Shown here one piece after another: positions 1,360 to 64,000 of a DNA stretch of 64,000 bases (position 1 is the first letter of the stretch; each line of letters starts with the position of its first letter). This stretch comes from Vermamoeba vermiformis (taxonomy: Eukaryota), in the NCBI GenBank assembly GCA_045837725.1, contig JBEWZL010000243.1:310001-374000 (forward strand). Reading direction: 5' to 3'. Below the pieces are notes generated by a model. That model saw nothing but the letters and a program-made list of their open reading frames with translations, was not told the origin of the DNA and did no database searches. The translations under genes were made by a program, and so were the position numbers.

Positions 1360-4300
1360 ATGTCGATTCAGCTCAAGATTCTAGTCAGCGCAACCGGAGC
1401 AGCAAAAGTTCTCCGCTTTGCTCCTGATATGACCATTGCGGAAGTGCTCAAGGAAATCAAGGAGAAGACCGAAATTGGTGGCGCTGACCATGGTTTATAC
1501 CAAGCCGCATTCAAGGGAAAGAAGCCCAGATGGCTCCAGAAAAACAGAACTCTTAAATACTACGATATCACAAATAACGTAAGTTCCTTAACGGTCGTTT
1601 TTTTGTGCGATTAACTAGCATATTTAAAATTGATTGATTTTATATAATCTTTAAGCGCAAAGGTAATGCAGCCTGACTAATCGTTTGCTCTTCTTAGATG
1701 GAGCTCGAATATAAGAAGAAGTCTCGTAGACTTAAGATTAAACTTCCCGACGATACAGTTAAGACTGTTATGATTGATGATTCTGGTCTTGTTGCCCAGA
1801 TCGTCAAATCCGTTGTGGAGAAACTCGACATTAAAACAAACCCTGAAGAGTGGGGTCTCAGACGTGAAACTGCCTCTGACAGTAAGTCAATTATTCGTAC
1901 GGCTCTTGCATTTTTCTCACGATTTACGTTTAGATCAATTTTTGGTTGACGGTCAAACTTTGCAAGAACAAGACGTCGTCGACGAAGAAGAGCAACTTCT
2001 GTTCGAGAAGAAGCTCTTCGGTATGGAGAACACTGATATGAGTGATCCTGTCGTGCTCCATTATTCTTATGTTCAAGTAAGATTTTGATTTTGAATTCAA
2101 AAAATTCAATACATTTTTGACACATCGCACAGGCCAAAAACAGAATTATTACTGGTAAATATCCTTGCCAGAGAGGTGAGGCTCTTGCTTTGGCTGCCTT
2201 GCAAGTTCAAGTCACCTACGGTAACTTCGATCCGAACAAGCATAAACCTGGCTTTTTGAAGTAAGTCAGCTTAGATACTTACTAGCTTATGCACTTTACT
2301 CACGACGGTATTTAGATTGAACGAATACATGGCTCCTCAATGGCAGAAGAACAAGAACATCGAAAAAGATATCTTCCAAGAACACAAGAAATTCACTGGT
2401 ATGACCGACATTCAAGCCAAATACAGATACCTCCAGGTCGTCAAGTCGTTGAAGACCTACGGTATCACTTTCTTCGAAGTCCGCGAGAAGCTCAGAGGCA
2501 AGAACAAGTTGGTCAAAATTCTGTTGGGTATCACCAGAGACAAGATTATCAAGGCCGACTATGAAACCAAGGAACCCATCAAGGAGTGGGAATTGACTCA
2601 AATGAGACGTTGGGCCGCTGGTGCCAACAGCTTCACTTTGGACTTTGGTGACTATGAAGACGATTACATCGTCATTTTGACCAACGAAGGAGAGGCTATT
2701 TCTCGTTTGCTCGGTGACTACATCGACTTGATTCTCAAGGCTCGTAAAGGTATGTTAGATTAGCTGCATACGATGTGCGTGTCATAGTTAACACGTGGTT
2801 TTTAGACGCTCCTCGTGTCGAAATTGAAGACGACACTGAAGTTGCTCAAGAAGAAATCATTTCTCACCAAGGAGGCAATGCTAACTTCTCTATGACTACT
2901 GGTTACGTCGCTGGTTATGACGGCTCTGGTGCTCAAGGATACAACGTTGGTCCTGCTCAAAACGTCGCCAACTTCATGTCTGGTGCCAGACCTCAAAACA
3001 TCAACGTTGGCGGTCCTGGTGGTGCTGGCATGTCTGTCTCTCGCTTCGCCTTCCCTGAAGCTCAAAAGATCAGCGTCATTGACGTTGGTACTGCTTCAAA
3101 GGCCGCCAGAGCTTTGGCTGGTGAAATCGGTACTGGTCTCGAAGGCTTCGAATCAACTGGCGTTCTCACTGCTGACCAATGGCGCGATCAATTGTCCAGA
3201 AATCAAGACGGTCTGCTCGCTAACCTGGGTAGCTTGATGAACGCTGCTCGCTTGGACCCTGGCATGTTCAACCGTAACGGTTTGGATAATGCCTCCAAGC
3301 AAATCAACATGGAGCTGTTCGGTTTGGCCACTGCCGCCAAGAACATCGCTAAGCTTGATGACGATATCCCCACCCTCGAAGGAGCCAAGTCTGTCGCTGA
3401 TGCCATCTCCAGACTGCTCGGTTGTGCCGACCGTTTGGGTCAAAACCCCGGTGATGCTCAACTCACTGCAGAACTCGTCGAAGCTGAGAAGCTCCTTCAA
3501 TTCTCCATCAACCGTCTCAATGAAGCCAAACAAGGTCGCGTTGCTGACAAGGGTGCTCAATTGCTTATGGTTGAGTGCATGAACAACATCGCCATGGCTC
3601 TCGATGAAGTTGTTGAAGGTGCTATGGGTGCCGCTACTAGCGTTGATGCTAACCGCCGTGGTGCCATCGAGAGAGAAATTGAAAGCCTCAAGGCCAACAA
3701 GGACTGGTTGATGAGCACTGTCGGCACTTTGGTCCCTGTCTCTATCAGCCCTGAAATCAAGAAACAAATCGTTCAATCCGCACAAGCCCTCGGAGATTTG
3801 GGTTTCAAGCTTGTTGACTTCACCAAGAAATCCGGCGTGAACGCAACTTACCTTCCTCCTTTGGACAACGCTGTCAAGAGCGTCACCGAAGCCCTCAGAC
3901 AAATGCTTGATTCTACCGAAACCGCTGAAAAGCGTGGTGGAGCTGAAGGCGATCTTGACTTGCACGGTACTGTCAACGTCATGTTGGCCACTCTTTCTCA
4001 ATTGAAGGGTAACATGACTGACCCCGTCAAGTTGGTCAACCTCGTCAAGGCTGCTGTCTCTACCAACAACAACTTGATGACCATCACCGAGAAGATCGCC
4101 GGCGCTGCTGACGACACTACTCGCGAACGTTTGTTAAAGGCCGGCAAGAACATCTCCGATGGTATGTCGAAGCTCGTCGAATCTGCCAGAAAGGTTCGTG
4201 AGAATCCCGAAGACAAGCTTGCTCAACAAGTCATGTTGAACACTTCTTTGAGAATTGAAAATCTTGCTCAAGACTTGCTTGCTGACGCTGGTGAGACTGC

Positions 4301-7300
4301 CGCCTTGACTGGTTTGAGATACTTCTCTAAGGCAGCCACTGCTGGTATGGTCAAGCTTACTGCTGTGGCCAAACAAGTTGGTCCCGGCGTTACTGACGCC
4401 GCAACTCGTGCTGGCTTAGCTAGGGCCGTTGCTGATGCCCGTGCTGCCATGCAAAACATGATGAACGCCATCCGCCGTGCTGGTCAAGAGCCTGACAACC
4501 GTGTTGCTCAAGACGAACTCTTGCAAACTGCTATTCGCGCTTTGCCAGTCTACTCCGAATTGGTCTTGAACTCTCGCAAGGCCCAGCGCTTCATCAACGA
4601 CGCTAACCAAAAGCAAGATCTTACCTACGCTGCTAACGAATCTGCTGATGTCAACAAGAAGCTCGAAAATGCCTGCAAATCCGTCTCCGACTTGGGCGGT
4701 CAAAGCGAGTTCGATGAGGCCATGGAAGACTTCGATACTGCCATTGCCGACTTGGATGCTGCTGAATTCTCTGCCAAGCAAGGTCTCTTGGTTGCCATTC
4801 CGGGTCAAACTCGTGAAAACGCACTCGAGTTGATGAACGTTGCTATTAAGCGTTTGGAAGGTGCCATGGAATCTTTGGTCGAAACCTCCAAGAGAGGAGG
4901 CAAATTGCCCGAGATTGTCCGCGAATCTGCTGCAGCTATTAACCAAGTATCTGCTGCCGTCAGAACTATGGCTGGTACTGTCAACGACAGAACTACTCAA
5001 AAGAGAATTATTGCTGCTGCCAAGTTGTTGACCACCGACACTCAGAACTTGATTACTGCCGGTCGTGTCTTGGCTATTGACGCTCAAAACAAGGAGAAGA
5101 TCGTTGAACTCGACAAAAATCAACGCAAGACTAAATCTTCTTTGGCCACTCTCATTGCCAGCGCCAAGGGTCTCGACGCTCGTGAATGTGACGAAGCTAT
5201 GGCTTTGATCCAAAGCGAATTGCAGAAGTTGACCGGTGATGAAGCTACTGGTGTGCAATTCAAGCAAGCCGCTGAGGGTTTGACTTCAGTCTGCAAGGCC
5301 CTTTCAGCTGCCGTTTCTCAGCTCGTTGCTATGGCTCGCAGCAACCCTCGTGGTCTTGGTGCCTCTGCTAAGATTAGCGCCACCACCATGTCTCAAGTCA
5401 TTCAAGCCGCTAACATTGCCGCTTCTGCTTCTTTGGATAAGAACACTAGCCTTGAGATTATGTCTGCTAGCCGTCGTTTGGCTGATGCCCTCAACAACTT
5501 GTTGAACTCTGCCAAATACGCCGCTGCTGATCGTGATGAGAACTCTTTGGCCAACTTGGCTGGAAGCAACACCGACGTCACTGATGCGATTCAAAACGTA
5601 CTCTCATCTTTGGGTGGTGTCACAGCTCCTGAATGCGATGAAGCTATTCGCATGATTATGGACGCTGTTCAATTGCTCGATCGTGGCAACCTTGATGGTG
5701 TTACTGGCAAGGGTCGCGGTGAATTGTTGAACGACATCACCAACACTGCCAAGACCTTGGCTCAACTCAGCGGTCGCATCGTCTCTGCCGCTCGTGTTAG
5801 CACTGCTAAGCTCGGTCTCTTCTCTAAGCAGGCCGCCACTGTCATCGGCTCGCTTATCAATGCTGCTCGTTCAGCTGCTAAGCAACCTGAAGGTGGTGAA
5901 GCAGGTTTCTCTGAAGACGGTAGCATCGTCTTGAAGTGTGTCACTCTCATTTTGCAAGACACAAACGACACCAACAAGGTTATCGCTGCTGCTAAGAAGG
6001 CTGCCGTCTCTGCCTCCAAGTTGATTGCTAACAACAAGGAGTTCGCAAAGGCCATTCCCGCTGACCAAAAGCTTCGTCAACAGAACTTGGTTAAGGCCGT
6101 GAAGAATATGGCTGATGCTGCTCGTCGCTTGGCTCAAGCCGCTCAAATGTCAGCCAAGAAGACTCCTGATACTATTGAGGAGTTGACTGCTGCCGCCAAG
6201 GACTTGAAGGAGAAGACTTTGAAGTTGGAAGAAGCTTCCGGCTCTGGTCAATCCACCGGCAGTGCTGATGGTGTTGATCCTCAAATCGCCAAGCAACTCG
6301 CCTCTTCATCTAAGACCGTTGCCGTCTCCACCTCTGAACTTATCCGCGCTGGTGCCTCTGTTTCCACCAGCAACAACCCCGGATCCAGCGAAGAGTTGTC
6401 CAAGTCTACTAACTCTGTTAGTGATGCCATTCAAGGCTTGTTGGTTGCTGCCGCTGCTTTGAACCCTGGTGTTCGTGAGTGCGAGAAGGCTGCCGACGTT
6501 ATCGCCACCGCTATCTCTGATCTCGATGCCGCTAACATTGCTTTGACTGTCGGTCAATTGCAAGTCAAGCTTCCTCCTAACAAGACTCCTCAAGACATCC
6601 AAAACGACATGGTTAACATCGCAAAGGATACTTCTGAGGACATTCGTCTTATCTCCAACGCTGCCGTTACTGGTAATGCCACTGAAATGGTTACCTCGGC
6701 CAAGAACATTCAAAACCGAGTACCCATTATGGTCAAGATCACCAAGGCTGTTGTGTCCACCAACCCGAACGCTCAGCAACAGAAGGACTTGTTGAATATG
6801 AGCAAGGATATGTCTGAAGCTTTGCTCAACTTGATCAAGAGCTGCAAGGCTGCCAATCCTGGTGAGAAGGCCTCTGTTGACAACGTCAAGAACAACTCCG
6901 AAGGTGCTTCTCAAGCCGTTGCCAAGTTGCTCAACATGTTGCAGACTGGTACTACCTTGATCAAGGATATCGATGGCATCATTGCTGGTTTCAAGCAACT
7001 CGCTGCTGCTTTGCCTACTCCTCTCACTGAAAAGCCCGACTCCAACTACCAAGCTTACCGTGCTGACCTTACAAACCTTTCCAAGGAATTGGCTTCCGCT
7101 GTTTTGAACTTGAACAGCGTCAACAAGGCCAGCGTTGGTCAAGTCGGTCTTGCTGCCAACCGCTTGAACGAAACTGTTCCCAAGTTGGCTGAAATTGTTC
7201 GCAAGGCTGCTGCCACTACCACCGATCCTGCTGCTCGTCAAAATCTTCAAGGTGCTGCCAAGAAGGTGCTTGACTGCACTTGCTTGATGCTGGATGCTGC

Positions 7301-9086
7301 CAAGCGTCTCACTCAAAACCCCAACGACGCCCGCGAGCAGAACTCGCTCCGAAATGCATTCAATGCTGCTAACGGCGCCATTGGTGAGTTGATCACTGCA
7401 AGCAAGAAGGGTGCTATTGGTGAGGTTATGATGGACCAAGCCGTCGAGGATATTGGCAAGGCTACCGCTAACTTGAACACCACCTCCATTTTTGCTCAAG
7501 CTGGTCAGTTGGAAGTTCCCAAGGAAGCCTCTGCTGCCACCATGCAGTCTTTGGAGACTGGTTTGTTGACCTCTGCTAAGAAATTGCTCTCACTTTGCGG
7601 TGGTCTCGACAAGTCTACCCAAGTCTCTGAAGAAGAGTTGGGCAAGATCGCCAAGGATATTGCCGCATGCGTCACTGAAACCGCGAACAACGCTATTAAC
7701 ACTGCCAGCCGTGTTCCTGACTCCATCTCTCAACAAGATATTTTGAACTCTGCCAAGGCTGTTGCTATCGCCACTCAACAAATCTTGTTGTCTGCCAAGG
7801 ACGTCCAGCGATCACCCAGCGACAATACCGCTTTGCAAACTCTCAACGTTTCACAGACTGGTGTTGCTGAGGCCGTGAACCAACTGATCACTACCACCAA
7901 GGGTGCCTCTGAGGAGTTCGCTCGTGGTGAGTTGGAATTGGAAAATGCCAAGAAGGCCATCGAAAAGGTCATCCAACACACTCCTGGAACCACTGGTGCC
8001 AAGCCTGAAGATGTCATTGCTGCTCTCAGAACCGTCACTGACGCTACCGCCAACATTGTGTTCGCTAGCAACCAAGAAGAGCTTATCAAGGCCGCACAAG
8101 AAGCTTCAAGCGGTGTTGAGAAGATGATGAACACCGCTCGTGGTGCCGCTCAATTGACCCAAGACACCAACATCAGAAACAACCTCGCTAACTCTTGCCG
8201 CGAGGCTGCTCGTCAAATGGTTAACTTGCTCGAAACTGGCAAGTTGAACCGTCAAGATCCTGCTACTCAAGCTAAGCTTGAAGAATCTTCTGGTGCCGTC
8301 ACCAACTCTATCCAAAACGTCGTTACTGCCCTTCGTGCTTTGCCTAACGCCAAGGACTTGTCTTTGGAAGAGAGCTCAAACTTGGAGAACTTGGCCGAAA
8401 GCGAGTTGTTGAACGCCGCTCGTGTCATCGAAGAAGCTGCCAAGACTTTGATGAACGCCAAGCCTCGCCGCACTAAGCCCAAGGTTGAGGGTGTTGTTGA
8501 CGAGGAGGACATTGTCGACGCTATTATCGACGCCGCTCGTGCTATCACCACCGCCACTGGTACTTTGGTCGCTGCTGCCACCGTCGCTCAAAAGGAGCGT
8601 AAGACCAGCTTGAACACTGGTGCTCTCAACAAGTACCGCAATGATCCTACTTGGGCCAACGGTCTTATCTCCGCCGCCAAGAACGTCGCTGGTGGTGTGA
8701 AGATGTTGGTGCAAGCCAGTAACTCCGCAGTCCAAGGCAAGGCTGAAGAAGAGCACTTGGTCGCTGCTGCTCGTGCTGTCGCTGCCGCCACTGCTCACTT
8801 GGTGACAGCCTCTCGTGTCAAGGCCGACTCGAACAGCAAGGCTCAACAGAACCTCACCAACGCTGCCAAGGCCGTAGCTAATGCCACTAACGAGCTCGTC
8901 AAGGCTGCTCAACACGCCTCTAACTTCGAGAAGGAAGAAGAGGTCGTGGTTGCTGGCAGTGGCATTGGTATTGCTACTCAAGAATTCAACCAACAAGCTG
9001 AGATTTTGCGCTTGGAACGCGAGTTGAACCGTGCTCGCCAAGGCTTGAGTAAGATCCGTAAGGAGCGTTACTCCAACAACAAATAA
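1360..9086 (+). CDS. talin: Talin (FERM head, helical rod, C-terminal I/LWEQ actin-binding domain), ~2460 aa
   Basis: Exons ~1360-1578, 1698-1881, 1934-2076, 2133-2260, 2316-2749, 2806-9086 with GT-AG introns. FERM motifs LKTYGITFF and MRRWAAGANSFTLDFGDYEDDY; Ala/Leu-rich rod; I/LWEQ blocks (DPTWANGLISAAKNVA, QAEILRLERELNRARQGLSKIRKERY). Probable 5' UTR intron 1038-1301. Confidence 0.96.
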
Positions 9087-27775: not shown

Positions 27776-30700
27776 TTACATTTGATCCTTCAACTTTCGG
27801 ATCTTGTTCAGACCTGCGTTGGCGGATCTGAGTTGTTTCTCCAAAGCCAAAATCTTGACCTGTTGGTTCAACTCTTCAAGAGCATCATCATCGGCGTTAG
27901 CGTCAATGCCAATGACGTCACCTCCGTCCTCGAACTCCTTGACACGTTGAGCAGCGCGCACGAGCTCGTCAGTGGCCTTAGCGACGGCGCGAGCAGCAGT
28001 GTTGAGCGTGTCAAGTTCTGACGCGTCAGTGCGGGTACGAAGAGCAGCGACCAACTGAGCAGTGCTCGAAGCTACACTTTGAGCGGAGTTGACAAGAGAA
28101 TCACCACTGAACTTGGTGTCTGTTGAAGCTGAGTACAGAGAGCGCAGACCTTGAGCGACACCCTTGGCAGCTGTCAATCGGTTCTGAGCCCAGGCAGGCG
28201 GAGTGAACTTGCGTGTCTGTTGACCTTGTTGAACCTTCAGTGCGGCATCAACGAGGACACCAGTGGCGTTGACAATGGCCTGTGAAGCACTGATCACTGC
28301 GGACGTGACGACAGGATCGACGTTGGGAACTTCCTTGCCCTTGGCCTTTTGAAGAGAGGAGCCGACTTCCTTGACGACCTTGGCAGTGGATTGCAATTCA
28401 GTATCGACTTGCTGTTCGAGCTGAGTACTGTCGGCAATGCCGAGTGACAAGTTGTCAGTGCCGGGCAAGGCCTTCAATTGCTCAATGGAGTTGTTCACGC
28501 TGGTCATTACACCTTCGATGGCATCAGCAAGCTTGATCTGTCGCTCAGCGTCCTTAATGTCCAACTTGGCAAGTTCGAGAATTGTCAAGAACTTGTTGGC
28601 CACATCGTGTGACGAAGCAGTGATCTTGTCCTTGATACTTTCGTCTTCAGTCAAGGCGCACACACCACGAGTGAAGTTGATGTACTTCTCGACGTCAAAG
28701 GAAGAGGCTTGAGCAGCGTCGATCAACTCATCTTGGTTGCTAGCAACGACTACATTGGAGCCAGAATCGATAACTCGTCTCAATGCAGAGGCAACATCTT
28801 CAGGCTTAGCTTTAACGGCCAAACCGGCAGAGATTGATTGCAGGATGGCCTTCTTGGCGGCTTCGAGTTCCTTTTCAGCACGAGCGAATTCGCCACTAGC
28901 TAAGGTCAGGACGCTGTTCAATTGAGCAACAGCCTCCGAGATGGAGTTCTTGGCCTTGGTGAAGACAGTCAAAACGTTGTTATCACTGGACTTTTGAGCG
29001 TCCTTTGCAGACAACAAGAGTTGCTGCAAGCCCAAAGACAAGGCTTTAGCAGCATTGAGAATGTCCTGTTGAGTCAAGGCGTCGGGGAAACGACTAGCAG
29101 CCAAAGAAGCGAACTTTGTGGCCGTCGATGTGGCTTCGGCAAGCTTCTTGGAAGTGCTGGCAACACGCTCTTCGTTGACCTTCAAGCGGCTCTCAAGTTC
29201 AGTAATGAGAGCAGGCAACTTGGCAGTGTTCTCGGTGACATTGGTCTGCAAGCTTTGAATGCTTTGCTGAGCGGCTTCCTTGGAAACTTCCAATTGACCA
29301 GCTTGAGCAAAGATGGCCGAGGTAGTCAGTCCGGCGGTCAACTTGTTCATGTCTTCGAGCACCTTATTCATGACATACTCACCGACAGCACCTCGCTTGG
29401 CACCAGCAATCAAGTTGCTAATGTAAGTGTTGGTGTTGTTGATGTAGTCACGCAAAGTATTGGCGAGCGTGCCGTCAGGATTGTTCAAGAATCCTTCAGT
29501 AGCAAGGCACATTTGCACGAGCTCGTCAACGATGCTCTTCATGGCTGTGCTTATTCTGTTCTTGGCAGTCTCGTCCGTAGTTGTGGCAACCATACCACGG
29601 GCCATGTCAACCATCTTAGGAACGATTTCCTTCAATCTGTTCAAGTTCAGTGACATTTGACCACCGTTGGAAGCAGAAGCAGAAGAGAAAGACATCAGAA
29701 CGGAGGCCAAGTCCTTGGTGCCTGTAGTGAGTTCGGCTCTGTAGGCACTGTAAGAGGCTTCAGGGTTCTCAGCGGGAGTTGCAGCAATGTCAGAGTACGC
29801 GTGCAAAACAGAAGCAGCTTCTTGGCAGTCAGCAGCAAGGGAGGACTCGCCTTGCAAAGCGTTGAGCAATGAAGCAATGGAAAAACTAGCCTTGTCGACT
29901 TGTGATGAGGAGTCGATGTCAGTGCTCGAGCACGACTTGATCAAGCTTGACATGGCCTCGAGCAAGTCTTTGGCAGCGTGCAATAAGCTCTGCTGCTTAT
30001 TCATGTCTGGGGTGGTGGCCACAACTGCCTTGAGAATCTTCGTGGCAATAGGAACTCGTGATTGCACTTCTTCAGCAAGTTTTCTAAGTTCATCAGGCTT
30101 GCCGCTAGCCTCACCCATTTGTCTGATCAAGTCGTCTAATTCGTGAGTAACATCCACGAGATCGCGTTGGATTTCTTGAGGACTCTTGTTGGGAATCTTA
30201 ACGTTGAGTTGATTCAAAGTCAAGTCCTTGAAGGTGTTATCCAAGTCAGTGATGGCAGCACCAACGGCTTGATCGGCCTTCTCGCATTCACGGACCGCAG
30301 GGTTAAGAACGGCGGCGACGGCCAAGAGCTTTCTGATAGACTCAGAGACGTCTCCAGGTTGACCAGTGGATGCGTCACGATCTTTTTGGTTCTTAGCACC
30401 ACCCATTGAGGCAGCAATTCTGTTAATCGCTGCAATAAGTCCTTCAGCAGCTGCCTTAGAAGTCTCTGCGATTCTGTTGGCGGTAGAGGCATCGACAGAG
30501 GCAGTTAAGGTCTTGGACACGGTGCTGTCACCTTCGTTAACAAGCTTCTCAGCATCCAAAGTGCGTTCACGAAGCTCCTTGGCGGCTTCAGCAACGGTAT
30601 CGCTCGCTCCAGCTTCTTTCTTAACGACTCCAGGGGCGGATTGAGCGAGCTTCTTCATCGCATCAGCCATACCCTTAATGTTCTTGACTAAGGCAGCTTG

Positions 30701-33700
30701 ACGTTGCTTGTCATCACCAATAGATTTGGCTGATTCCTTGAACTTGTTGATAAGGTTGGCAACGGAGACGGCGGCCTTCTTGGTAGCAGCGACGACTTTT
30801 TGTCCGTCTTGGGTGTCGTTCAGAATGAGGGTCATGCACTTCGCGACAACGACAACATCATTGTTGGCATCGCCTTCACTCGATGAGCCGCCATCGGAGC
30901 TTGATGCAGCCTTCAAGGCAGAGCGAGCAGTTGAGAGAATGGAGCCCATAGTTGTAGCAGCCATCTTGCCCAAGAGCTCGAACTTGCCGGATGACTTTCC
31001 GGTAGTCATCAACTTGGTAAAGACTTGAGTGAACTTCTTGACGTTCGAATTGATCTCGTGCAACAAGATGGAGCTGGTCTTGGCCTGAACGTCCTTAAAC
31101 TCTTTCTTCTCCAAGCGATCCAATTCGTCGGTGATGATCTTGACAATCTCTTCGGCATCGTTGGAGGATGAGTCGAGAATGCCCAACAAGGCAGTCAATT
31201 CGTTGCTCGAAGCTGTGCTCAAAGAGTTCAAGCTTTCCAAGGCAAGTTCATCACTAGCAGCACCTGCTTCCTTGGCGCAGTTGAGCAAGCGAAGAATGTT
31301 GTCGGTGAGCAGGGTAGCAGCTTGCAAGATATCGAAGCTCAGGCCCTTATCATTGGTGGCCGAGGCGGCAGATGAGATGGAGGCGGTCAATTGAGAGACG
31401 GTTGAGGCAATAATCTTGCTGACACCACCGAGACCAGTTGGGTTGGTCTTGGTAGTAGCGACGAGTTGTGAAATCAAAGAAGAAAGGACCTTGGCGTTAG
31501 TCATCACGCTCTCAGTGGCTTGAGTGTATGTAGTCGCAGTGATGTCGTTGCCAGTAAGTTTCTTTGCGGCCTCACGAATGCTTTGAAGCGCATCATCGCA
31601 ATCACGAGCGTCGATACCGCGAGCACTAGCAACCAACGTAGCCAATGCAGTCTTGAAGTCAGTCTCGATCTTGTCGAATTCTTTCTTCTTGTTCTTATTG
31701 TTCAAGTCCATAGAGTACATACGACCGGAGGTGAGTAACTCGTAGGCAGTGGCACTGACAGCTTTAGCAGAGGTGATCATACGCTCCTGGACACCCTTGT
31801 CGCTGACAGTGGTAATCATTGAGCGTACACCAAGCGAGACTTGACCAATGCTGGAACTGGCTTCTTTGATGGGATTAATGACATTACCACCGACTCTGAC
31901 TTGGTCGGAGAATTTGTCAGTAGCGCCAGACAAACTCTTAATGGCCAAGTTGAGTAACTTGAAGGCGTTGTCACGAATTTCACTAGCTGCAACAATATCA
32001 ACTGTACGGTAGTTAGTAACTGAATCTTTCTACGAACAAACGTCTGCTTACCGTCGGTAACTTGTAACGCTTCAAGGTCGGAGTTAACGTTAAGGAACAC
32101 TTCCAAAGCCTCTTCAATTTCACGTTGACCACCAAGATCTGCTACTGAGCTGCATGCGGTTTCAAGCTTTTTGTTTAGCTCAACGATTTCGTTAGAGCAG
32201 AAAGCCAAATCTTGCTTCAAGTTGGGGTCCGTAATATAACGGCCACCACGCTTGGTAGCAAGCACCAACTCGGCGAACTTAGCCAAAGCTTTAACCGAGG
32301 CTTTAAGCAAGTCGATTTGGTAACGCTTGTTGTGCGGGTTTTTGCCGGCAGCTGCAATAACAGGGACGAGCTCTGAGACTTCAGCGAGTGTGGTGTTGAT
32401 CGTGTTGGCGAGAATGTTCTTGGCGTCATTGTCAGGCATGACACGCAAAGCGGATCTGCTCATGGCAGCCAGCTTGACGATACCGGCAGCCGCAGACTTG
32501 GCGTAGTATCTCAAAGAGTTGATAGAGAAGGCCTCACCAGCATCGGCGAGCAATTGATTTGCTTGGGTCTCAAGCACGGAGACTTCGTGCAACAACTTAG
32601 CTTGAAGAGTATTGTCTTCAAACTTGGTGTTGAGTGCTCGGCCGCCTTGAAGGACTTTTTCAGCTTGAACTTTCATAGTTTGGAGCATTTCGGCCAAGCG
32701 AGCCTTGGTGGCTGGTTCGGCATTAGCGATCAAACCCTCAGTCAAAGCAATGACGTTGTTGTTGGATGTGACAATGGCCTTGACGTTTGTAACAAGGCGA
32801 TCAGGCTCGGCAATGTTGACTTTCAGTGTCTTGATGGTGTTGGAAAGGGTGTTGACCAAGCCGTAGAAATCAGATTCACCGGCAGCAGCTTGGTTAGGTT
32901 CAGCCGTCTCAGTGCTGGCAATCATCTGCTTCAGTGACACGCGAATAGCTTGCACCGCCTAAGTCGAGTTAGTACATTGTTGATATTGAGTGGCAAAGGG
33001 AACATACGCTGTCAAATCGGGCTCTGTCTGTGCTGGCAAGTTGAGCGTTGCTAACAGACAAAGCGACGCGCTCAGTCAACTCGGTGACCTTGCCTTGGTT
33101 TTCCGCGAAGTACTTCTTAATTTCAGGACTGAGTGCCACAACAGACATCATGCTGACTTCTTCTGCCATGGTAGCCTTGGCCCGTTCCAATTGACCGATC
33201 TCGTGAGTGAGAGCTTCTCTTTTCTCAACAGAAAGGACTTCAGCAGCACCGGCCATCACAGCAATCATTTCTTCCATGTTGACGGTGACAGCGTTCACGG
33301 TCTCAGCGACCAACATACGAGCACCCTAAGCATTAATGTTAGATACTTACATTGATGCAAGCACTCTCTACTTACAGAGTCAGTTACGAAGTTGTTAACA
33401 ACACCTTCGACGAACTTCATCGAGTCATTAAACTTGCGTTCAGCAGCGAAGTACTCGTTCAAGAACTCAGCGCTGGGAGGAGCATTGGGGTCGAGACCCT
33501 CATAGCAGGCTAGAAGTGAGCTCAATGCTTTCGCAACGTTCTATTCTTATAATTAGTAAAGCTCTCGAGCGCGGTAAATACTATAACTTACGCTGACACC
33601 CTGAAGTGCGGGCAAGTCCTCGAAAGACTTGGCAGCGGCGGCCATGTTCATAATAGTGGTGTGCATTTCCTTCAAGTTGTTGTTAAGAGCACCTTGCACG

Positions 33701-55850: not shown

Positions 55851-57860
55851 ATGGAATTTAATCAAGCTTCAATTAAGCAAACTCCCATTCATAGTAAGTA
55901 AGACTATAAGCTACGACAATTTTCTAAATATTTCGAAATAATTCTAATTTATGGATCCATTAATGTCCTCACCTTACACGAGTATTAGCCTCTTCATAAT
56001 ATATAATTGATGATTATATATTATAGTTGAGATTTGTCTTAAGCCACGCTCCACTGCAAAGCCAGAAGAGATCAAAGAACGCGCCTCTCATTTTCTCGTC
56101 GCCAACTTTAGTAACTTTCAATACCCTCGTGGCCTATCATTCGACGTCACTTCAAATGAATTTCTTCGCGCGAATGTCGAATATATGAAAATAGCTGATG
56201 AAGGTAAGCAAATTTCTTCGTTTCAATTTCGACATCCGGATCTTCAGTCGTTACACGGACCTACCTAACACTTCATATTATAGTCTCGTCCTCAAGTATC
56301 ATCTCGAAGACCAATCCTCCCATTATACATGTCTTCCAACTGCACCAAGATGAAGCTGGTCAAGAAGAGCTGGATGGCGAAGAAAATCAAAACATTGCCG
56401 CTTGTAATATATGGGAGCTGCCTAATGTCGAATTCGATGGTCTATGGGACACGTAAGTGCATCTTATATGAATAAATAAGCTCAGCGCATTTCTTATTCT
56501 TAACTACGTTTACGCTAACCGGATGTGCCTCAGGTTGGTCTATGAAGAATCAATTAAAAAGAACCTTATTGAATACATATCAACTGCTATGCTATTCTCG
56601 GATAGAAACATCAATAGCAACATCATTAGTTGGAACAGGTAAGCTCAATTTCAGCCAGTACAAAATGTTAGATCTACGTACTTCCGATTCTAATTGTTTA
56701 ACAATACTAATATGTCTATATATAGAGTGGTATTATTGCATGGACCACCAGGAACGGGCAAGACTAGTCTTTGTAAAGCTCTTAGTCAAAAACTTGCGAT
56801 CCGACTAGACGATCGGTACGAAACAAACCTCGACTTCTTAATCTGGCTTAACATCGAACTAATTATTTCCTAATTAGGTATCGCGGTGGTCAATTGGTCG
56901 AAATCAATGCTCACAGTCTGTTCAGCAAGTGGTTCTCTGAGAGTGGCAAGCTCGTCATGAAATTGTTCGAAAAGATCCGTGAAATGGTCGAAGACGATGA
57001 CACGTTTGTTTGTGTGCTAATAGGTAATGTACTAATTAGGAACATATATTGCCTTATTTAGCAAAGGATGTCGAATAATGACACGTGTAAATAGATGAAG
57101 TCGAGAGTTTGACAGCGGCACGTCAAGCAGCTATTGCAGGCACAGAACCATCTGATGCAATTAGAGTACGTCCTAGTATTATAATATTACCATAAAAGGA
57201 AATAACGATGATGACACGTTGTAATTTGACAGGTCGTAAATGCTGTGCTCACACAGATCGATCAATTGAAGAAATACCGCAATGTCATCATTCTAACCAC
57301 ATCGAACGTTACTGGTGCAATAGGTATATCCGTTGTGTTTATAATATAGGCATTATTACTCATTTTCTATTGCACAGATCTGGCATTCGTGGATCGAGCA
57401 GACATCAAACAATACATTGGTCCACCAAACATTAGAGCACGTTACGATATAATTTCGTCGTGCATATACGAACTGATGCGTGTTGGAATTATTAGTCCAA
57501 AAGTAAGTGTCGTCCACGCTTTGACACTTTGATTTGACACGTGTCATTTTGTAGGTGCCGCTACTCGACTACAAGTCGCTCGAACTAATGCACGCACCAA
57601 GTGAAACATCACGGGCGAGTATGATGTTGTTAGAGGCGATGAAACAGTGCGAAGGATTCAGTGGTCGTGCCATGAGGAAACTGCCCTTCATCGCTCACTC
57701 GCACTTCGTTCAGGTACGTAGAACAATCTCTAATCACGACAGCGCTGTTAAACAATGAACTTCACAATAGAGACCACAATGTACAGTAGAAGAGTTTATT
57801 ATCGCTTTTGATGCAGCGGTGAAAAAAGAAGTGAATGATCGCACGGCTGTCAACAAGTAA
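55851..57860 (+). CDS. TRIP13: AAA+ ATPase PCH2/TRIP13
   Basis: [100 protein letters not shown]; about 10 introns. Confidence 0.95.
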
Positions 57861-57921
57861 ATTTGGTACGTAGCTGAGTCAAAGGTCAATCTATTTACAA
57901 GAAAACTCTATCGTATTTACA

Positions 57922-59955
57922 CTATTCTTTTTTGCTAGCGATTTTTATCTTTTCAGCTTTCATTTCTTCGAGGATCAAATGCTGGTTGTGTTCCGTGATT
58001 TCAAAGAACTCTTCTTCGAGAGATTTTTTGTGAATAATCGTCAAGAACGAAACACCACTAACACTAGTAGCCGCACCGTGGAACGCTATTTGAAAAATGT
58101 TAATTCTGACCGGATTAATTGAGTTCTAACGCACCTGCCGCTCCGAGCATTGCAAACACGTTTACTAAAGGCACAAGCTTAAGTGCTTCGAGGCCAAATA
58201 AGGCAACTCGAGCGGCTGTCACGGGGATGTTCGTTGCAGCACCGGTCCAAAGTCCGTCTGGCCAACTGGTAAGTCAAAAAAACTTGCTGAAAGCTTAAAC
58301 TTACGAGCAATAGTTTTCAAAGTCCCTGCAGGAGATTTCATGCCGTAGAGTCTCATGATTGCACCGAACATGCCAACGTGAAGTGGAATGATCATGGCCA
58401 AGTCCGTGAATGGACTTCAAATGGTTAGCCGCACGTAATATTTAGATATTTCTACTTACATTGGCGATAATCCAGCAGCGGCACACGCGGTACTGAAAGC
58501 TGCAACAATAGCCAAGCCCTTCTTCTTTCTGGCACATAATTAGACCCGTGTTTATAACAAAGAACATCCACGTTTCTTCTTAGGTACGTACAAATCAGCA
58601 TAATAGGCGGCTTGGTTCGAGTAGAACATCTCGGAGAGCTTGTCATTCTTCTCTTTCCACTTCAATAGCTCACGTGCCATCGCTCTTGCCAAGTCGTGCA
58701 TGCCATGTGCAGGAGTGGTCTTGCCTTTGATAGTTTTATCTTTGGCCAGCACTGCATGGTAGCTCGAAATGTTGTCGTTCTTCAAGTCGGTCTTCATGAG
58801 CTCCAAGAAGTTCAAACTTTCTTCAGATGAGCACTGCAGTAGAACGACCATGACCTGCGCGAACTCGGCGATGGCGTTAATGACGCTAATTTGCCACTCT
58901 TCTATGCGAGGCTTTTGAAGACAGAACAAGACCAAGTGAATCTTTTCGCCTTTGATGTGAGGTGCGTTGCATGCAACTAGGTTGAGGACGAAGTTGACGT
59001 AGCTCGGCAAGTCATGGAATTGAAGGTTCTGCTCTTTCTCGTTCTTAGCCACGTTGAAGAACCCGGGAGTGTCGATGAAACGAACTGAGCGTCCATTGTG
59101 TGAGTACTGCACATGCTCGACCTTGTTCGTCATCGCAACACCCGAGCAGTTTCCTTCTTTCAGTTGTAGCTTTGGAGGCGGTCTGCAAAAGTTGTTTCCC
59201 AAACAACTCTTGCCAATTCCGTTGTCACCAATCATCAAGACATTGACGTGATCAATGCCTGATGTATTGGCATCAAGTAAGATTTTTGCTCCAGCTATTG
59301 CCCGTTCGTAGATGTACAAGGGCGCGAATTCGAATTGGCGCACTAGAATCGAGCGTCAGCGATGAGGAACTAGTAATGATTACTTGAAATGAGAAACAGC
59401 TTACTTTTCTCCTCGTCAGTGGGATAGTCTGCAACAATGTTCTTGGCGATGTTGATAAACTCTTCTCTGTACACAAAATCGGCTGGAATGAGGTCGTTCG
59501 TTTCAACAGGTTCTTCCTCGAAATATTTCATGCGCAAGAATAAAGTAACAATCAATCGCTTAATGTTGGCGTTAAGTCCGATCCATGGGTGAAGCAACTC
59601 GTGAAACTTCTGGCGACAATACGCTCTAGTAAATTCGCCTAAAGAATTGCGTAAGAATACAACTGAAAAATTCACTTGAATGAAGCTACTTACAGCCAGC
59701 TACATGGACATAAAGAGACTCGATTTTTGCGTATGTCTCCCTGAGTTGGTCGTCACCGAGTCTGCCAATGGCAAACAAAACTTCCAAAACCTGCTTCTGA
59801 GCCTCGTATTGATCTTGGTGAACGTAAAATGCGCCGTCAGAAAGGGAAATACACAATCGACATTGCTCGCCTTGCCTTGCTGTCAAAGGCAATACAAAGG
59901 ATTGTATGTGGGGTAGGGCGTTTGTAATTAGTGGAAGAATTCCGTCGGTGGACAT
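57922..59955 (-). CDS. P-loop GTPase with DUF697/YcjF-like hydrophobic C-terminal domain
   Basis: G1 VLMIGDNGIGKSCLGN, G3 FIDTPGF, KIHLVLFCL. Spliced C-terminus AAAGLSPIPFTDLAMIIPLHVGMFGAIMRLYG...LKLVPLV. Introns 58529-58591, ~58416-58459, ~58259-58304, ~58087-58134; TAG 57922-57924. Confidence 0.85.
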
Positions 59956-60019
59956 GTTTGCGATAAAATTGAACGAATAATAATGGAAAACATCGCTTTT
60001 ATGCGTTTCTATTTCTGAC

Positions 60020-60165
60020 TTTGACCAATCAGAAGTTTTTTTCGCAAGTTTCCATCAAAGAATAACCAATTATTGAGCTAAGAATTGACCAACTAAATTT
60101 CGTTGAACTGACCAATAGGGCGAGGTTTTATTGTGCACGTGATGCTATTCTTTCGACGCGAAAAA
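60020..60165. promoter_or_regulatory. Bidirectional promoter with clustered CCAAT boxes
   Basis: CCAAT at 60025, 60066 and 60112, a near match at ~60089, CACGTG at 60136 and ACGCGAAAA at ~60157, all within the 263-bp gap between divergent ATGs (59955 and 60219). Confidence 0.5.
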
Positions 60166-60218: not shown

Positions 60219-62808
60219 ATGATGGCCACAAAATCACTCCATGAAATTACCAATGCTTTACAAGTTCTAAAAGCGAGGTAAGAATTAAAATCTGATCATC
60301 CGTTATTCATTCACTGAATCCGATCCAATTCTTTGGCTTCTAACTTTCATCAGATTGCCCAAAGCCGCCAGAAAAACTCTTAAAGTCATAGAGTATGTTG
60401 TTATTGGTGGAGAATCGGCCGGAAAATCGAGCTTGGTTGAAGCGCTTGCCGGATTCCAATTCAATTTTATTCGTCTTGGTCAGTATGAATACGCAATAAC
60501 CATTTAAATTAATTTTATGGTCAGGTATGGGAACTCGCTGCCCTTTAATCCTTCAGATGGTCAATGACCCAACTTGTCATCAACCCAGATGCAGGATCAC
60601 CATTGACGGAACCACTCAGGACATCCCCATTGCTAACATCGCCGATATAATATCCGCAAAGACTGAGCAACTCAAAGCGGCAAATGCAGTATCAACAGAT
60701 CCGATAATTGTGGAGCTGGTCAGCCGCGACTGCTTCAACTTCACGTTAATCGACACTCCAGGTCTGAAAGGCGTAGGACATGATGACAGTACGTGAATAT
60801 GATGTATATGTTTGGAAAATACTAACGCCATCAATAGAAAAATTGGTGGCGGACATCGAACACATGGTGGAACAACTTATCACGGGGGAAAACTCGCATC
60901 GGACCATCATTTGTGTCGAACAGTCCGAGGTAAATTGATCAAATATCTCTTCCGCCCGGTACCTTTATGAATTAATTTACCTCGCAGAACACGTGGGATC
61001 ATCCAGGGCTTGGCAGACTCATGATCGATCGCGTTGACAAGAACTACGAACGAACAATTTTCGTCAAAACAAAAATCGATCAAATTTTATCGCGTCACAG
61101 CACCGATGCCGCAGAATGGTTTGCAGACGGTAGAAAAAAGATCCCCAACTGTCCAATGTTTTGTGTTGCCACTCCAACGAAGCCACAAGAACCTCAAAAG
61201 TGGACGGACGAAGTTTTCCGTGCCAAACTTCGAGATGAGACTAAGAAAACGCTGAATATGGTCGAAAAACTGAAATTAGAGTAAGTTAATCGCATTAATT
61301 CCTATTGTTTTGTTTTTTACAGCAAAGTTTAGTGCCGACTTGAACATTGAGTTTGGTGTGGAGGCGCTGAAAAAGTACCTCGAAGACGACTACGCAAAAA
61401 AGCTGAAACTTCATATGAATGACGTACTGTCGTCAATTGACAAGATCGTGCATGATCTCGAAATACAATTGAACGAAACTACCACCGCGCTGCAGAAAAA
61501 CGATGACAAAAATCTGCAAAAAGATGTTGTTAGACAAGCAGCGGTCATTACAAACATGTTGCAAGAGTTTTTTCAGGGCAAATTGAACCGAAATATTACT
61601 GATGGTGTGACTTTGAAAGACGAGAACGATCGCTGCTTTAGAGGTGTTGACCTGAAATCGATGGTGCCGTGGATGCACCAAGTGGACTTTTCTCTTTTGC
61701 ACACACAAACCTCGCTGTTATATGGAGGTACTTCCATCCTTATTTACATAACCCTATCATATACTAAACTTACATACAGGGTCGCAGTACAATCGAATTC
61801 TTCACGAAGTTGAACTGATCGTCAAGTCCCTTGAATTGCCTTATTTGGGCATTGATCAAGTTGATATTGCACGTGGTGCACAATTGAAATCCAATAACGC
61901 TTCGTTCGGCGACACAGTGAGTACTCAAACCATTGCCTAATTTGGTAATTAACTCCGATTTAGGTGTCAGAACTTTGCTGCAATCAGTTATCGCGCTGTG
62001 TGCGTGACATTCACGTCTATTTGGCCAAAAAGCTCAAATTTTTCACTGAAACACTCTTAACGGTGACGCTCAACTATCTGAAGCAAGCGAACGACTCATT
62101 GGCATTCTCCATGGCCGCCGAACAAATACGTCAATTATACCCTGCGTACGTACGAGTTGGTTCGATATTAGGTGTTCTTATTATTTAATATTTGTAGTGC
62201 TGTTGAGTCCGTTCTAAGCAGGTGGCAAGATCTGGCCAAAGACATTGTACCGACAGAAGAATATTCACGGTCAATGTTGAATCCGTTGACTTATCGCAAA
62301 CGAGTAGAATATAGGTACACATTTATTGATGCCACTAATCATTAACCCCATGCTTAACCAAAATATTTTTTTTCAGTGAAAATTTGGATCCCAAGACTCG
62401 GATTCGAGAAGAATTACAAAACGTGCCGATCAATGAGACTCCACAGTTCGCTAATCTCCCGACCAGCGAGATTATGGAGCCATTGACCGCTGCCTGTCGG
62501 TACGCCTTCAGAAGACTTTGCGATCAATATCTCACTACGCTACTTGGCTTGACTAACAGCTTCTTCTCGATCCCACTGTAAGTTCACTTTTTGCTTAACG
62601 TTACTAATATTAAGAGTTACTGATGCGACTTTTCTTAAGGCAAAAAGCGATCCCTGCCATTCTGGGTGACATTGAGCTGCCTCCCAATGCCCTTGCGACA
62701 ATAGCAGCTGAACGCCAAAGATTGGAAAACAACAAACGCGAGATCTCGGCTGAGATTTCTGACTTCAAGACTTTGGCAGAGCAATTCGAAGTCTATCGCA
62801 TGCAATAG
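60219..62808 (+). CDS. Dynamin-like protein, DRP5A/ARC5/Dictyostelium Dlp type
   Basis: VVIGGESAGKSSLVEALAGFQFN..GMGTRCPLILQMVND (closely resembles the DRP5A G1/G2 region), TLIDTPGL, VKTKID; about 10 exons. Confidence 0.88.
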
Positions 62809-64000
62809 TTTCAGATACAACGATATGTATGTAACCACTTTTGGGCATAAAATTGATCGATTTATTTATCGACACAACACTGCTCGATTGTTTTTCCGAC
62901 TTCTTTTCCAGCATCTTGTAATCCGCGCTTGGATTCTCTTCGGACAATTTCATTAGCTCTGCACGCTTCTGTTCCCGTTTGACTAACTCCGCTGCCATTG
63001 CCGTAGCGAGATCATGCATTCCACAGGAATGATAATCGATGTTATCGCCTTCAGCCAGTACAGTGTGAACACTTGAGACTTTGCTGCCTTTGAGACTATA
63101 CTTCATTCGTTCCAAGTTCTTCAAGTCTTTTTCTTTCGAGTTCGTAGTAAGTTGAACAACCATTACTTGCATTACATTGGACGCGCTATCAATTAGACTT
63201 GCAAAAGGCCCCATCTCTGATCCTCTCATGCAACACAACATTATTTGAATTGGACCATTCAACCGCAATGAGATGGCTCGTGTATTATCAACAAATGTTT
63301 TTCTAGGAACTTGGCCATCGAATGACATATTTGTTAGAATGACTCTACTGCCATTAGCCCCACAACAAGAGAACTCCTCGAAGTGTTTTTCCGTGCTTTG
63401 ACAAAAAAGCTGAGCAAAAACTTTTCTGCCAACATTGTCATCCCCCACCATGATCACATTGATCGATCGGACGGTCGACAGGTTCTTTTCCATCAAGATG
63501 TGTGCGGGGATGACCAATCGTTCTTGAATATACAGTGGGGCGAACTCTGCTTGTCGTCCTATAATAGCTGTTAATGACTCTATATTAGCTTAATTTAGCA
63601 TACTTTTCTCTTCATCTGTTGGATACTTAGCAACAATTTCTTTTGCAATATCGATGAACTCTTCTCTGAACGCAAATTCAGCTGGCAACAGTTTGTTAGT
63701 ATCAAGGGGCACTCGACCCTCGTACTTCAAGTTCAAAAACATTGATACGATGTGACGCTTGAGGTCGGCATTGAGGTCCTGCCATGGCCCAAGAAACAGT
63801 TTGAACGCTATGTGACACTGTTGTCTGGCCTCTGCTTGTCTGAGGGCTTTCTGGTGTGCTTCTAACATGTTTGTTATTCTCGCCAAGCACTCTTGACTGG
63901 TGGGACGTTTTTGTGGATCTGTCTTGCAACAATCTGTAATGAGTTGCTTCCACTCCTGGTTTTCAATGCCGTTGGAAATCTCGGTCACTCTAGCCTCTTC
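62765..64000 (-). CDS. Partial gene: protein kinase C-terminal lobe end, shared linker, and degenerate GTPase domain (paralog of 57922-59955)
   Basis: Kinase subdomain XI-like WKQLITDCCKTDPQKRPTSQECL; linker FREEFIDIAKEIVAKYPTDEEK|RRQAEFAPLYIQER with the same intron position as the neighbouring GTPase; P-loop remnant VIMVGDDNVGRK; GMHDLATAMAAELVK. Confidence 0.78.

Follow-up and report, generated by a model that had tools for sequence, protein, structure and literature searches.

In this report, we focus on a GTPase gene in which a short intron, the third of six, appears to hold a second C-terminus for the protein. The gene lies in the window, by which we mean the whole 64,000-nucleotide stretch of Vermamoeba vermiformis DNA that was analysed. 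Spliced out, the intron leaves the G domain joined to a hydrophobic domain of the DUF697 type; kept, it would end the protein in Cys-Ser-Leu-Leu, a CaaX box with Leu in the last position (CaaL). We consider it somewhat better than an even chance, roughly 55%, that a real and selected CaaL isoform is made through intron retention or through termination within the intron. Direct support exists for the intron, for the spliced product, for the homology of both domains and for a conserved C-x-L-L end in relatives. This end looks selected as a peptide, which in turn favours a real geranylgeranyl-type isoform. The positions of the relevant features are collected in Table 1.

Table 1. Features of the GTPase gene and of the candidate second coding end in its intron 3 (positions in the window)
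Feature	Position	Strand	Remarks
GTPase gene coding region	57922..59955	minus	7 exons, 6 short introns; 570 aa fully spliced
Exons 1-2	59955-59694, 59638-59405	minus	N-terminal ~165 aa, without Pfam family
Exon 3	58592..59342	minus	P-loop G domain (GDNGIGKS, DTPG), then long C-terminal helix
Intron 3	58529..58591	minus	63 nt, phase 2; donor GTACGT, branch-like GTCTAAT, acceptor CAG
Read-through coding segment YVPKKKRGCSLL	58555..58590	minus	KKKR 58581-58570, CSLL 58566-58555
In-frame TAA closing the read-through form	58552..58554	minus	within TATAAA
Exons 4-7	58528-58460, 58414-58305, 58257-58135, 58085-57925	minus	DUF697-like hydrophobic domain and charged C-terminal helix; with introns 4-6

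Introns are very short in this eukaryotic host, and the gene follows this pattern. On the minus strand, its spliced coding sequence begins with the ATG at 59955, stays open over 1713 nt and closes with the TAG at 57924-57922; the five other introns measure 55, 62, 45, 47 and 49 nt. Intron 3 ends in GCCAG, with the branch-like GTCTAAT placed 17 nt before the intron end. For evidence of splicing, Logan contigs of four runs from three studies were aligned to positions 57900-60000: X1 is a root metatranscriptome, X2 and X5 are RNA of "organism A", and the kind of X19 is unrecorded. The joint 58528|58592, at which 63 nt are skipped and which reads CT..AC on the plus strand, is present in the contigs of all four runs. 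All six modelled joints are seen in X1 and in X2, five in X19 and three in X5. An earlier reading of the DNA, made from the sequence only, had described a well-formed intron of 63 nt at 58529-58591 and an in-frame join to a DUF697-like domain that runs to a stop at 57922. Coordinates and signals of the intron were both correct, its joint is found in 4/4 RNA-containing runs, and the uninterrupted frame of 570 aa bears out the join.

The same contigs bear on the form in which the intron is kept. The interior of intron 3 is uncovered in all four runs, and the depth in the intron 3 bin is exactly the exon share in the contigs of each. These data suggest that the retained-intron form is not abundant in the four runs. 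The sequence-only reading had proposed to weigh reads across the junction against reads that keep the intron; the first half of this check gave the spliced joint every time, but the retained form is absent from the contigs, and these drop minor variants, so that a minor form is invisible there. The contigs of X2 and X5 also carry a transcribed variant that is ~97% identical to the gene of the window. Read in the spliced frame, 32/40 of the differences listed for this variant are synonymous; the two within exons 5 and 7 are among these, and the nonsynonymous ones lie mostly in exons 1-2. The downstream exons are therefore no relics: they are expressed and under purifying selection. With spliced contigs and this share of synonymous changes in hand, the idea that they might be untranscribed remnants, which had been raised as a weakness of the original proposal, falls away. 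One of the X2 contigs extends 145 nt beyond 57900. Downstream lies a TRIP13-like AAA+ gene (57555-57758, plus strand; lid domain at E 1.1e-13), which is convergent with the GTPase gene and ends ~160 nt from its stop, and the 3' ends of the two genes may overlap.

The spliced C-terminus resembles a domain of bacterial proteins. A HMMER search of 1.84 billion representatives returned 107 hits at E <= 1e-3, and Pfam was run on 18 of these. Three distant hits, P0056, P0073 and P0084, pair MMR_HSR1 with DUF697, with only P0073 above the DUF697 cut-off (40 bits vs 27.7) and the other two below it. When the spliced C-terminus was compared with 109 proteins by phmmer, it matched P0056 at 291-408 (E 4e-15) and P0073 at 290-384 (E 3.5e-8), in both cases overlapping the DUF697 region that Pfam assigns to these proteins. 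Scanned one at a time, single exons of the C-terminus gave no Pfam hit at E up to 1. A MAFFT alignment with all three proteins is collinear and runs gapless across the exon 3/4 junction. The cluster of P0084 is named "GTPase family protein" from Vagococcus salmoninarum, and the Atlas neighbours of P0056 are bacterial clusters with MMR_HSR1 and DUF697. By homology, then, the C-terminal domain is related to the DUF697 of bacterial GTPase-DUF697 proteins, and the spliced product is a eukaryotic member of this bacterial type with an added N-terminal region. The two-domain order (MMR_HSR1 followed by PF05128), the collinear alignment and the homologous C-terminal domain are shared with the bacterial proteins. 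Unlike these, the gene of the window is eukaryotic, has six spliceosomal introns and an extra N-terminal region of ~165 aa, and carries a CaaX-type alternative end in the very intron that separates its two domains. Our literature search found no paper on a eukaryotic GTPase-DUF697, the family papers being bacterial or metagenomic by title. Kyte-Doolittle plots with 19-residue windows peak at 1.6-1.84 at about aa 427-433, 445-455 and 497-516. From this hydropathy, and by comparison with the YcjF family, DUF697 would lie in the membrane, and the domain presumably holds the protein there.

For the G domain, the open reading frame of exon 3 matches three Pfam models above their cut-offs: MMR_HSR1 with 30.8 bits (cut-off 21.9; E 3.5e-7), AIG1 with 28.8 bits (cut-off 27), where only model positions 2-69 of 212 are covered, and Septin with 26.7 bits (cut-off 26.2). 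An NCBIfam scan returned generic GTPase models alone, all of them sub-threshold, and the ESM Atlas placed the same frame with generic MMR_HSR1/AIG1 clusters at 0.92-0.94 (152-167 shared features), with nothing specific among them. An AF2 model built on a 7-sequence alignment has a mean pLDDT of 81.3; residues 214-250 form a long helix in it, and the tail beyond (251-262) is disordered. Foldseek ranks GIMAP2, Toc34 and septins as the best matches to this model, at E about 1e-8, a TM of 0.4-0.55 and an identity of 14-19%. GIMAP/AIG1, Toc34 and the septins are thus the nearest solved folds and hold the nearest Pfam models; this indicates a common superfamily group for the G domain, AIG1/GIMAP and septin, and does not imply membership in any of these families. 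Several members of the GIMAP/AIG1, Toc34 and septin families are held at membranes by C-terminal hydrophobic segments. To our knowledge, none in these families has a DUF697 domain or a CaaX box encoded in an intron.

Two neighbouring genes belong to the same general class. A paralogue lies at 62765-64000 on the minus strand and runs off the end of the window. It is ~36% identical over residues 92-420, and the N-terminal ~165 aa encoded by exons 1-2 are partly common to both. The paralogue has a degenerate P-loop (GDDNVGRK) and lacks both a CaaX end and a DUF697 part; the absence of the latter shows that the G domain can stand alone. Upstream in the paralogue is a weak Pkinase match, restricted to the last 27 positions of that domain and below the cut-off (E 0.005), and the protein may combine a kinase with a pseudo-GTPase. 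A dynamin-like gene occupies 60289-62700 on the plus strand (Dynamin_N at E 8.7e-12 on one exon). It and the GTPase gene are transcribed divergently from starts only ~330 nt apart, and three GTPase-type genes thus stand in a row.

When intron 3 is retained, the frame that leaves exon 3 as ...YYADL continues as YVPKKKRGCSLL to the stop TAA at 58554-58552, which gives a product of 428 aa. The CaaX-like end that had been read from the sequence is indeed there, as CSLL followed directly by a stop: Cys stands fourth from the C-terminus and Leu last. Residues YVPKKKRG ahead of the box are disordered in the AF2 model (part of 251-262, pLDDT < 50) and would form a flexible linker. As described in the source consulted, GGT1 favours Leu at the last position (+3), CaaX substrates have a flexible hydrophilic linker ahead of the box, and CSLL is a natural box of Rab8 (PMC1175975). 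The donor contributes to the open frame as well. Among donor-like hexamers of the window, GTAAGT is enriched (70 seen vs 37.9 expected), and in phase 2 either GTAAGT or GTGAGT would bring an immediate stop, whereas the GTACGT of intron 3 keeps the frame open. Three Lys codons open both continuations beyond the junction Leu on the minus strand, as KKKG in exon 4 (58520-58528) and, after YVP, as KKKR in the intron (58573-58581). These paired Lys runs could be the trace of a duplication or two independent basic patches beside a membrane anchor. That the tail arose as a copy of the first part of exon 4 was considered and set aside, since an alignment made by hand is poor past the shared AAGAAGAA.

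How often would such a tail arise by chance? Among the 2957 stop-to-stop segments of at least 12 aa in the six frames of the window, five end in a GGTase-I-like CaaX box, one in C-x-L-L, and one in a GGTase-I-like box preceded by at least three K/R. The single C-x-L-L segment and the single segment with box and basic residues are both the tail of intron 3. In addition, 1,000,000 random introns of 63 nt were simulated with the composition of the gene's own introns and with the same donor and phase. Of these, 293 end in C-x-L-L (a chance of ~3 in 10,000), 953 in a GGTase-I-like box, and 9 combine the box with at least three K/R. Taken alone, the tail is rare and not impossible, and a very large scan will yield such a case by chance. 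The original argument that a tail of this kind is unlikely in a short intron therefore holds for any given intron, at 9/1,000,000 for box and basic patch together, but not for a very large scan, in which one is expected somewhere.

More weight must be given to what relatives have kept. Six close homologues were compared, and the tails of these relatives are open reading frame calls on short contigs. P0005 carries no information, as it stops short of the junction. In P0001, which represents the gene in a 99% identical strain, the ORF caller has continued into the intron, and the end is YVPKTKRGCSLL. In P0002, which is 57% identical, the end is ...YYKQL-YVPKKSCNLL. Here, 8/10 tail residues are identical to those of the window, which is above the identity of the adjoining exon; the differences include a gap of two codons that keeps the frame and an S/N change, and the box is intact. 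P0004, at 36% identity, ends in ...AYFGT-VSVLRCCLL and has in common with the tail of the window only a basic residue and C-x-L-L before the stop. P0108 (53%) and P0003 (40%) stop exactly at the junction Leu, as ...AYFDKL and ...AYYKIL. C-x-L-L thus follows shortly after the junction in 2/4 divergent homologues, and the other 2/4 have no tail. A GTAAGT or GTGAGT donor read in this phase (xxG, then TAA or TGA) would produce just such ends as those of P0108 and P0003, and because of this match the position of intron 3 appears to be conserved among the relatives. It is likewise from the pattern at the junction, and from this only, that we would place the tails of the relatives in introns ahead of putative DUF697 exons.

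An unselected intron would be expected to keep nothing at such protein distances. That the tail is kept in P0002, and that P0004 shares the motif alone, argues for selection on a translated peptide over selection on an RNA element; the Cys-x-Leu-Leu end thus looks selected as a peptide. The basic patch behaves differently, being KKKR in the window, KTKR in P0001, KK in P0002 and a single R in P0004. The sequence-only reading had invoked a polybasic patch that directs the protein to the plasma membrane; with the patch not conserved, this part of the proposal finds no support. Similarly, its suggestion that orthologs might conserve KKKRGCSLL within the intron is borne out for C-x-L-L in P0002 and P0004, but the basic patch varies and P0108 and P0003 are without a tail. 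Further searches for related loci were negative: an alignment-based search gave 39 pattern matches in metagenome contigs and 19 in genome contigs, none of them confirmed in either set, and a degenerate pattern of the last 13 residues of exon 3 had no match in metagenome contigs. There was no longer homologous protein among 1179 candidates, and a near search with the final 112 residues gave no homologue among two candidates; an annotated full-length eukaryotic relative was not obtained.

The most serious alternative is that intron 3 is an ordinary, constitutive intron, whose tail is not translated to any meaningful extent in this gene and is a relic or by-product, perhaps functional only in relatives where it may be the true C-terminus. 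Much of what speaks against a switch agrees with this. No contig retains the intron, all being spliced in 4/4 runs, two of the four divergent homologues manage without a tail, and the 99% identical strain has a K to T change within the tail as opposed to two changes in the 249 residues of exon 3. Moreover, an mRNA that kept intron 3 but lost introns 4-6 would contain a premature stop upstream of three exon junctions, and could thereby be open to nonsense-mediated decay if the pathway recognises stops in this way. However, the tail is intact, and P0002 keeps 8/10 of its residues despite an overall identity of 57%. A stretch of 36 nt under no selection should have decayed, and a C-x-L-L end has a chance of ~3 in 10,000 per lineage. 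On balance, a purely constitutive intron seems to us unlikely, if well ahead of the alternatives that follow.

A second explanation would place the constraint on the RNA, for example on a splicing enhancer or other regulatory sequence within the 5' part of intron 3. Short introns are cramped, splicing may depend on the bases that follow the donor, and the tail has no support at the protein level, all of which would suit such an element. The pattern of changes is nevertheless that of a peptide motif, as the changes in P0002 spare the box and P0004 shares nothing more than the basic residue and C-x-L-L with its stop. Rfam gave no match at E up to 1 over 57800-60100, and the fold of 58610-58510 is no more stable than that of shuffled sequences (z -0.55), so a structured RNA in intron 3 was rejected. 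The opposite strand of the tail holds no long open reading frame to account for the conservation. We thus regard an RNA constraint as improbable.

It is far less probable still that a second in-frame donor at +33 (GTTATA, phase 2) is used and adds 11 residues at the boundary of the G domain and DUF697. Among the GT dinucleotides that the tail-coding part of the intron contains, at offsets 0, 4, 20, 26 and 33 from the donor, examined by hand, it is the sole one besides the donor itself that keeps the frame with exon 4. However, GTTATA is poor as a donor-like hexamer (24 seen vs 47.8 expected in the window), the RNA contigs of the four runs contain no such joint, and C-x-L-L directly before a stop in three lineages would be left unexplained. 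Coincidence in all lineages is no more credible: a very large scan does find rare motifs, a polybasic CaaX read-through occurring about once per 100,000 introns (9/1,000,000), yet two further independent C-x-L-L ends, each at ~3 in 10,000, would be needed at the same junction of homologues.

A selected CaaL isoform therefore remains our preferred reading, and the following mechanism would account for it. In the main mRNA, intron 3 is removed, and the G domain is joined to the DUF697 hydrophobic domain. The first 39 nt of intron 3 would serve as a second, selected coding end. Where the intron is kept, by retention or by termination within or after it, translation would add 12 more codons and then stop. 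This minor or conditional mRNA would encode the G domain with a flexible tail ending in Cys-Ser-Leu-Leu, a box of the geranylgeranyltransferase-I type. Once geranylgeranylated, the read-through product would attach to the membrane by a lipid instead of by a protein domain. One gene could thereby give rise to an integral or hairpin-anchored form and to a lipid-anchored, potentially reversible one, and the latter is probably produced. The read-through mRNA, its translation, the prenylation of its product and a regulated choice between the forms are what we infer from selection on the tail. As for the splicing switch that was proposed at the outset, the spliced isoform is seen and C-x-L-L is conserved, but of the two mRNA isoforms that a switch would comprise, the contigs of the four runs document the spliced, non-CaaX form alone; the second is deduced from selection on its tail, not observed. 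In its widest form, the proposal is of a protist family of bacterial-type GTPases with a conserved geranylgeranylation box in the intron that separates the domains, in which splicing chooses between a protein-domain anchor and a reversible lipid anchor and which has been kept down to 36% identity. For this broader claim, we would give even odds.

That splicing can decide on the presence or absence of a CaaX box is already known from OAS1 and the lamins, vertebrate lamin A/C being similar in kind to the splicing of the annelid lamin CaaX box. In human OAS1, the splice choice between p46 and p42 sets the CaaX end and hence the membrane location of the protein (PMC6950736). As described there, a SNP at an acceptor site sets the choice, and the form without CaaX is cytosolic (PMC6950736), whereas the gene of the window has a hydrophobic domain as its alternative end and carries the CaaX box in the intron itself. 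Several annelid lamin genes produce, through alternative splicing, a form with a CaaX box and a form with another C-terminus, and the authors discuss the latter as a possible membrane-binding end (PMC10125929). In their account, the annelid lamins, which are intermediate filament proteins, use a cassette exon and have the CaaX box in a downstream exon (PMC10125929), as opposed to the candidate retained intron of a GTPase found here. Our search of the literature, in which papers were judged mostly by their titles and abstracts, found no CaaX box encoded in a retained intron. If true, two things would be unusual: the position of a CaaX box in the 5' end of a retained intron, and its alternation with a bacterial-type hydrophobic domain on one GTPase. 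Confirmation would show clearly that intron retention can be conserved and functional in a protist whose introns are very short, a setting in which retained introns tend to be written off as noise. A further gain would be a handle on the function of DUF697 GTPases, through the direct comparison of two anchoring modes on a single G domain.

The remainder of the window has features of its own. A tRNA scan over its whole length returned no genes. Talin-like genes with I/LWEQ, Talin_IBS2B and rod segments lie at 2748-9086 (plus strand) and at 27776-32029 (minus strand), one of them with an uninterrupted frame of 2112 aa, and the window also carries RPN1 and CWC25.
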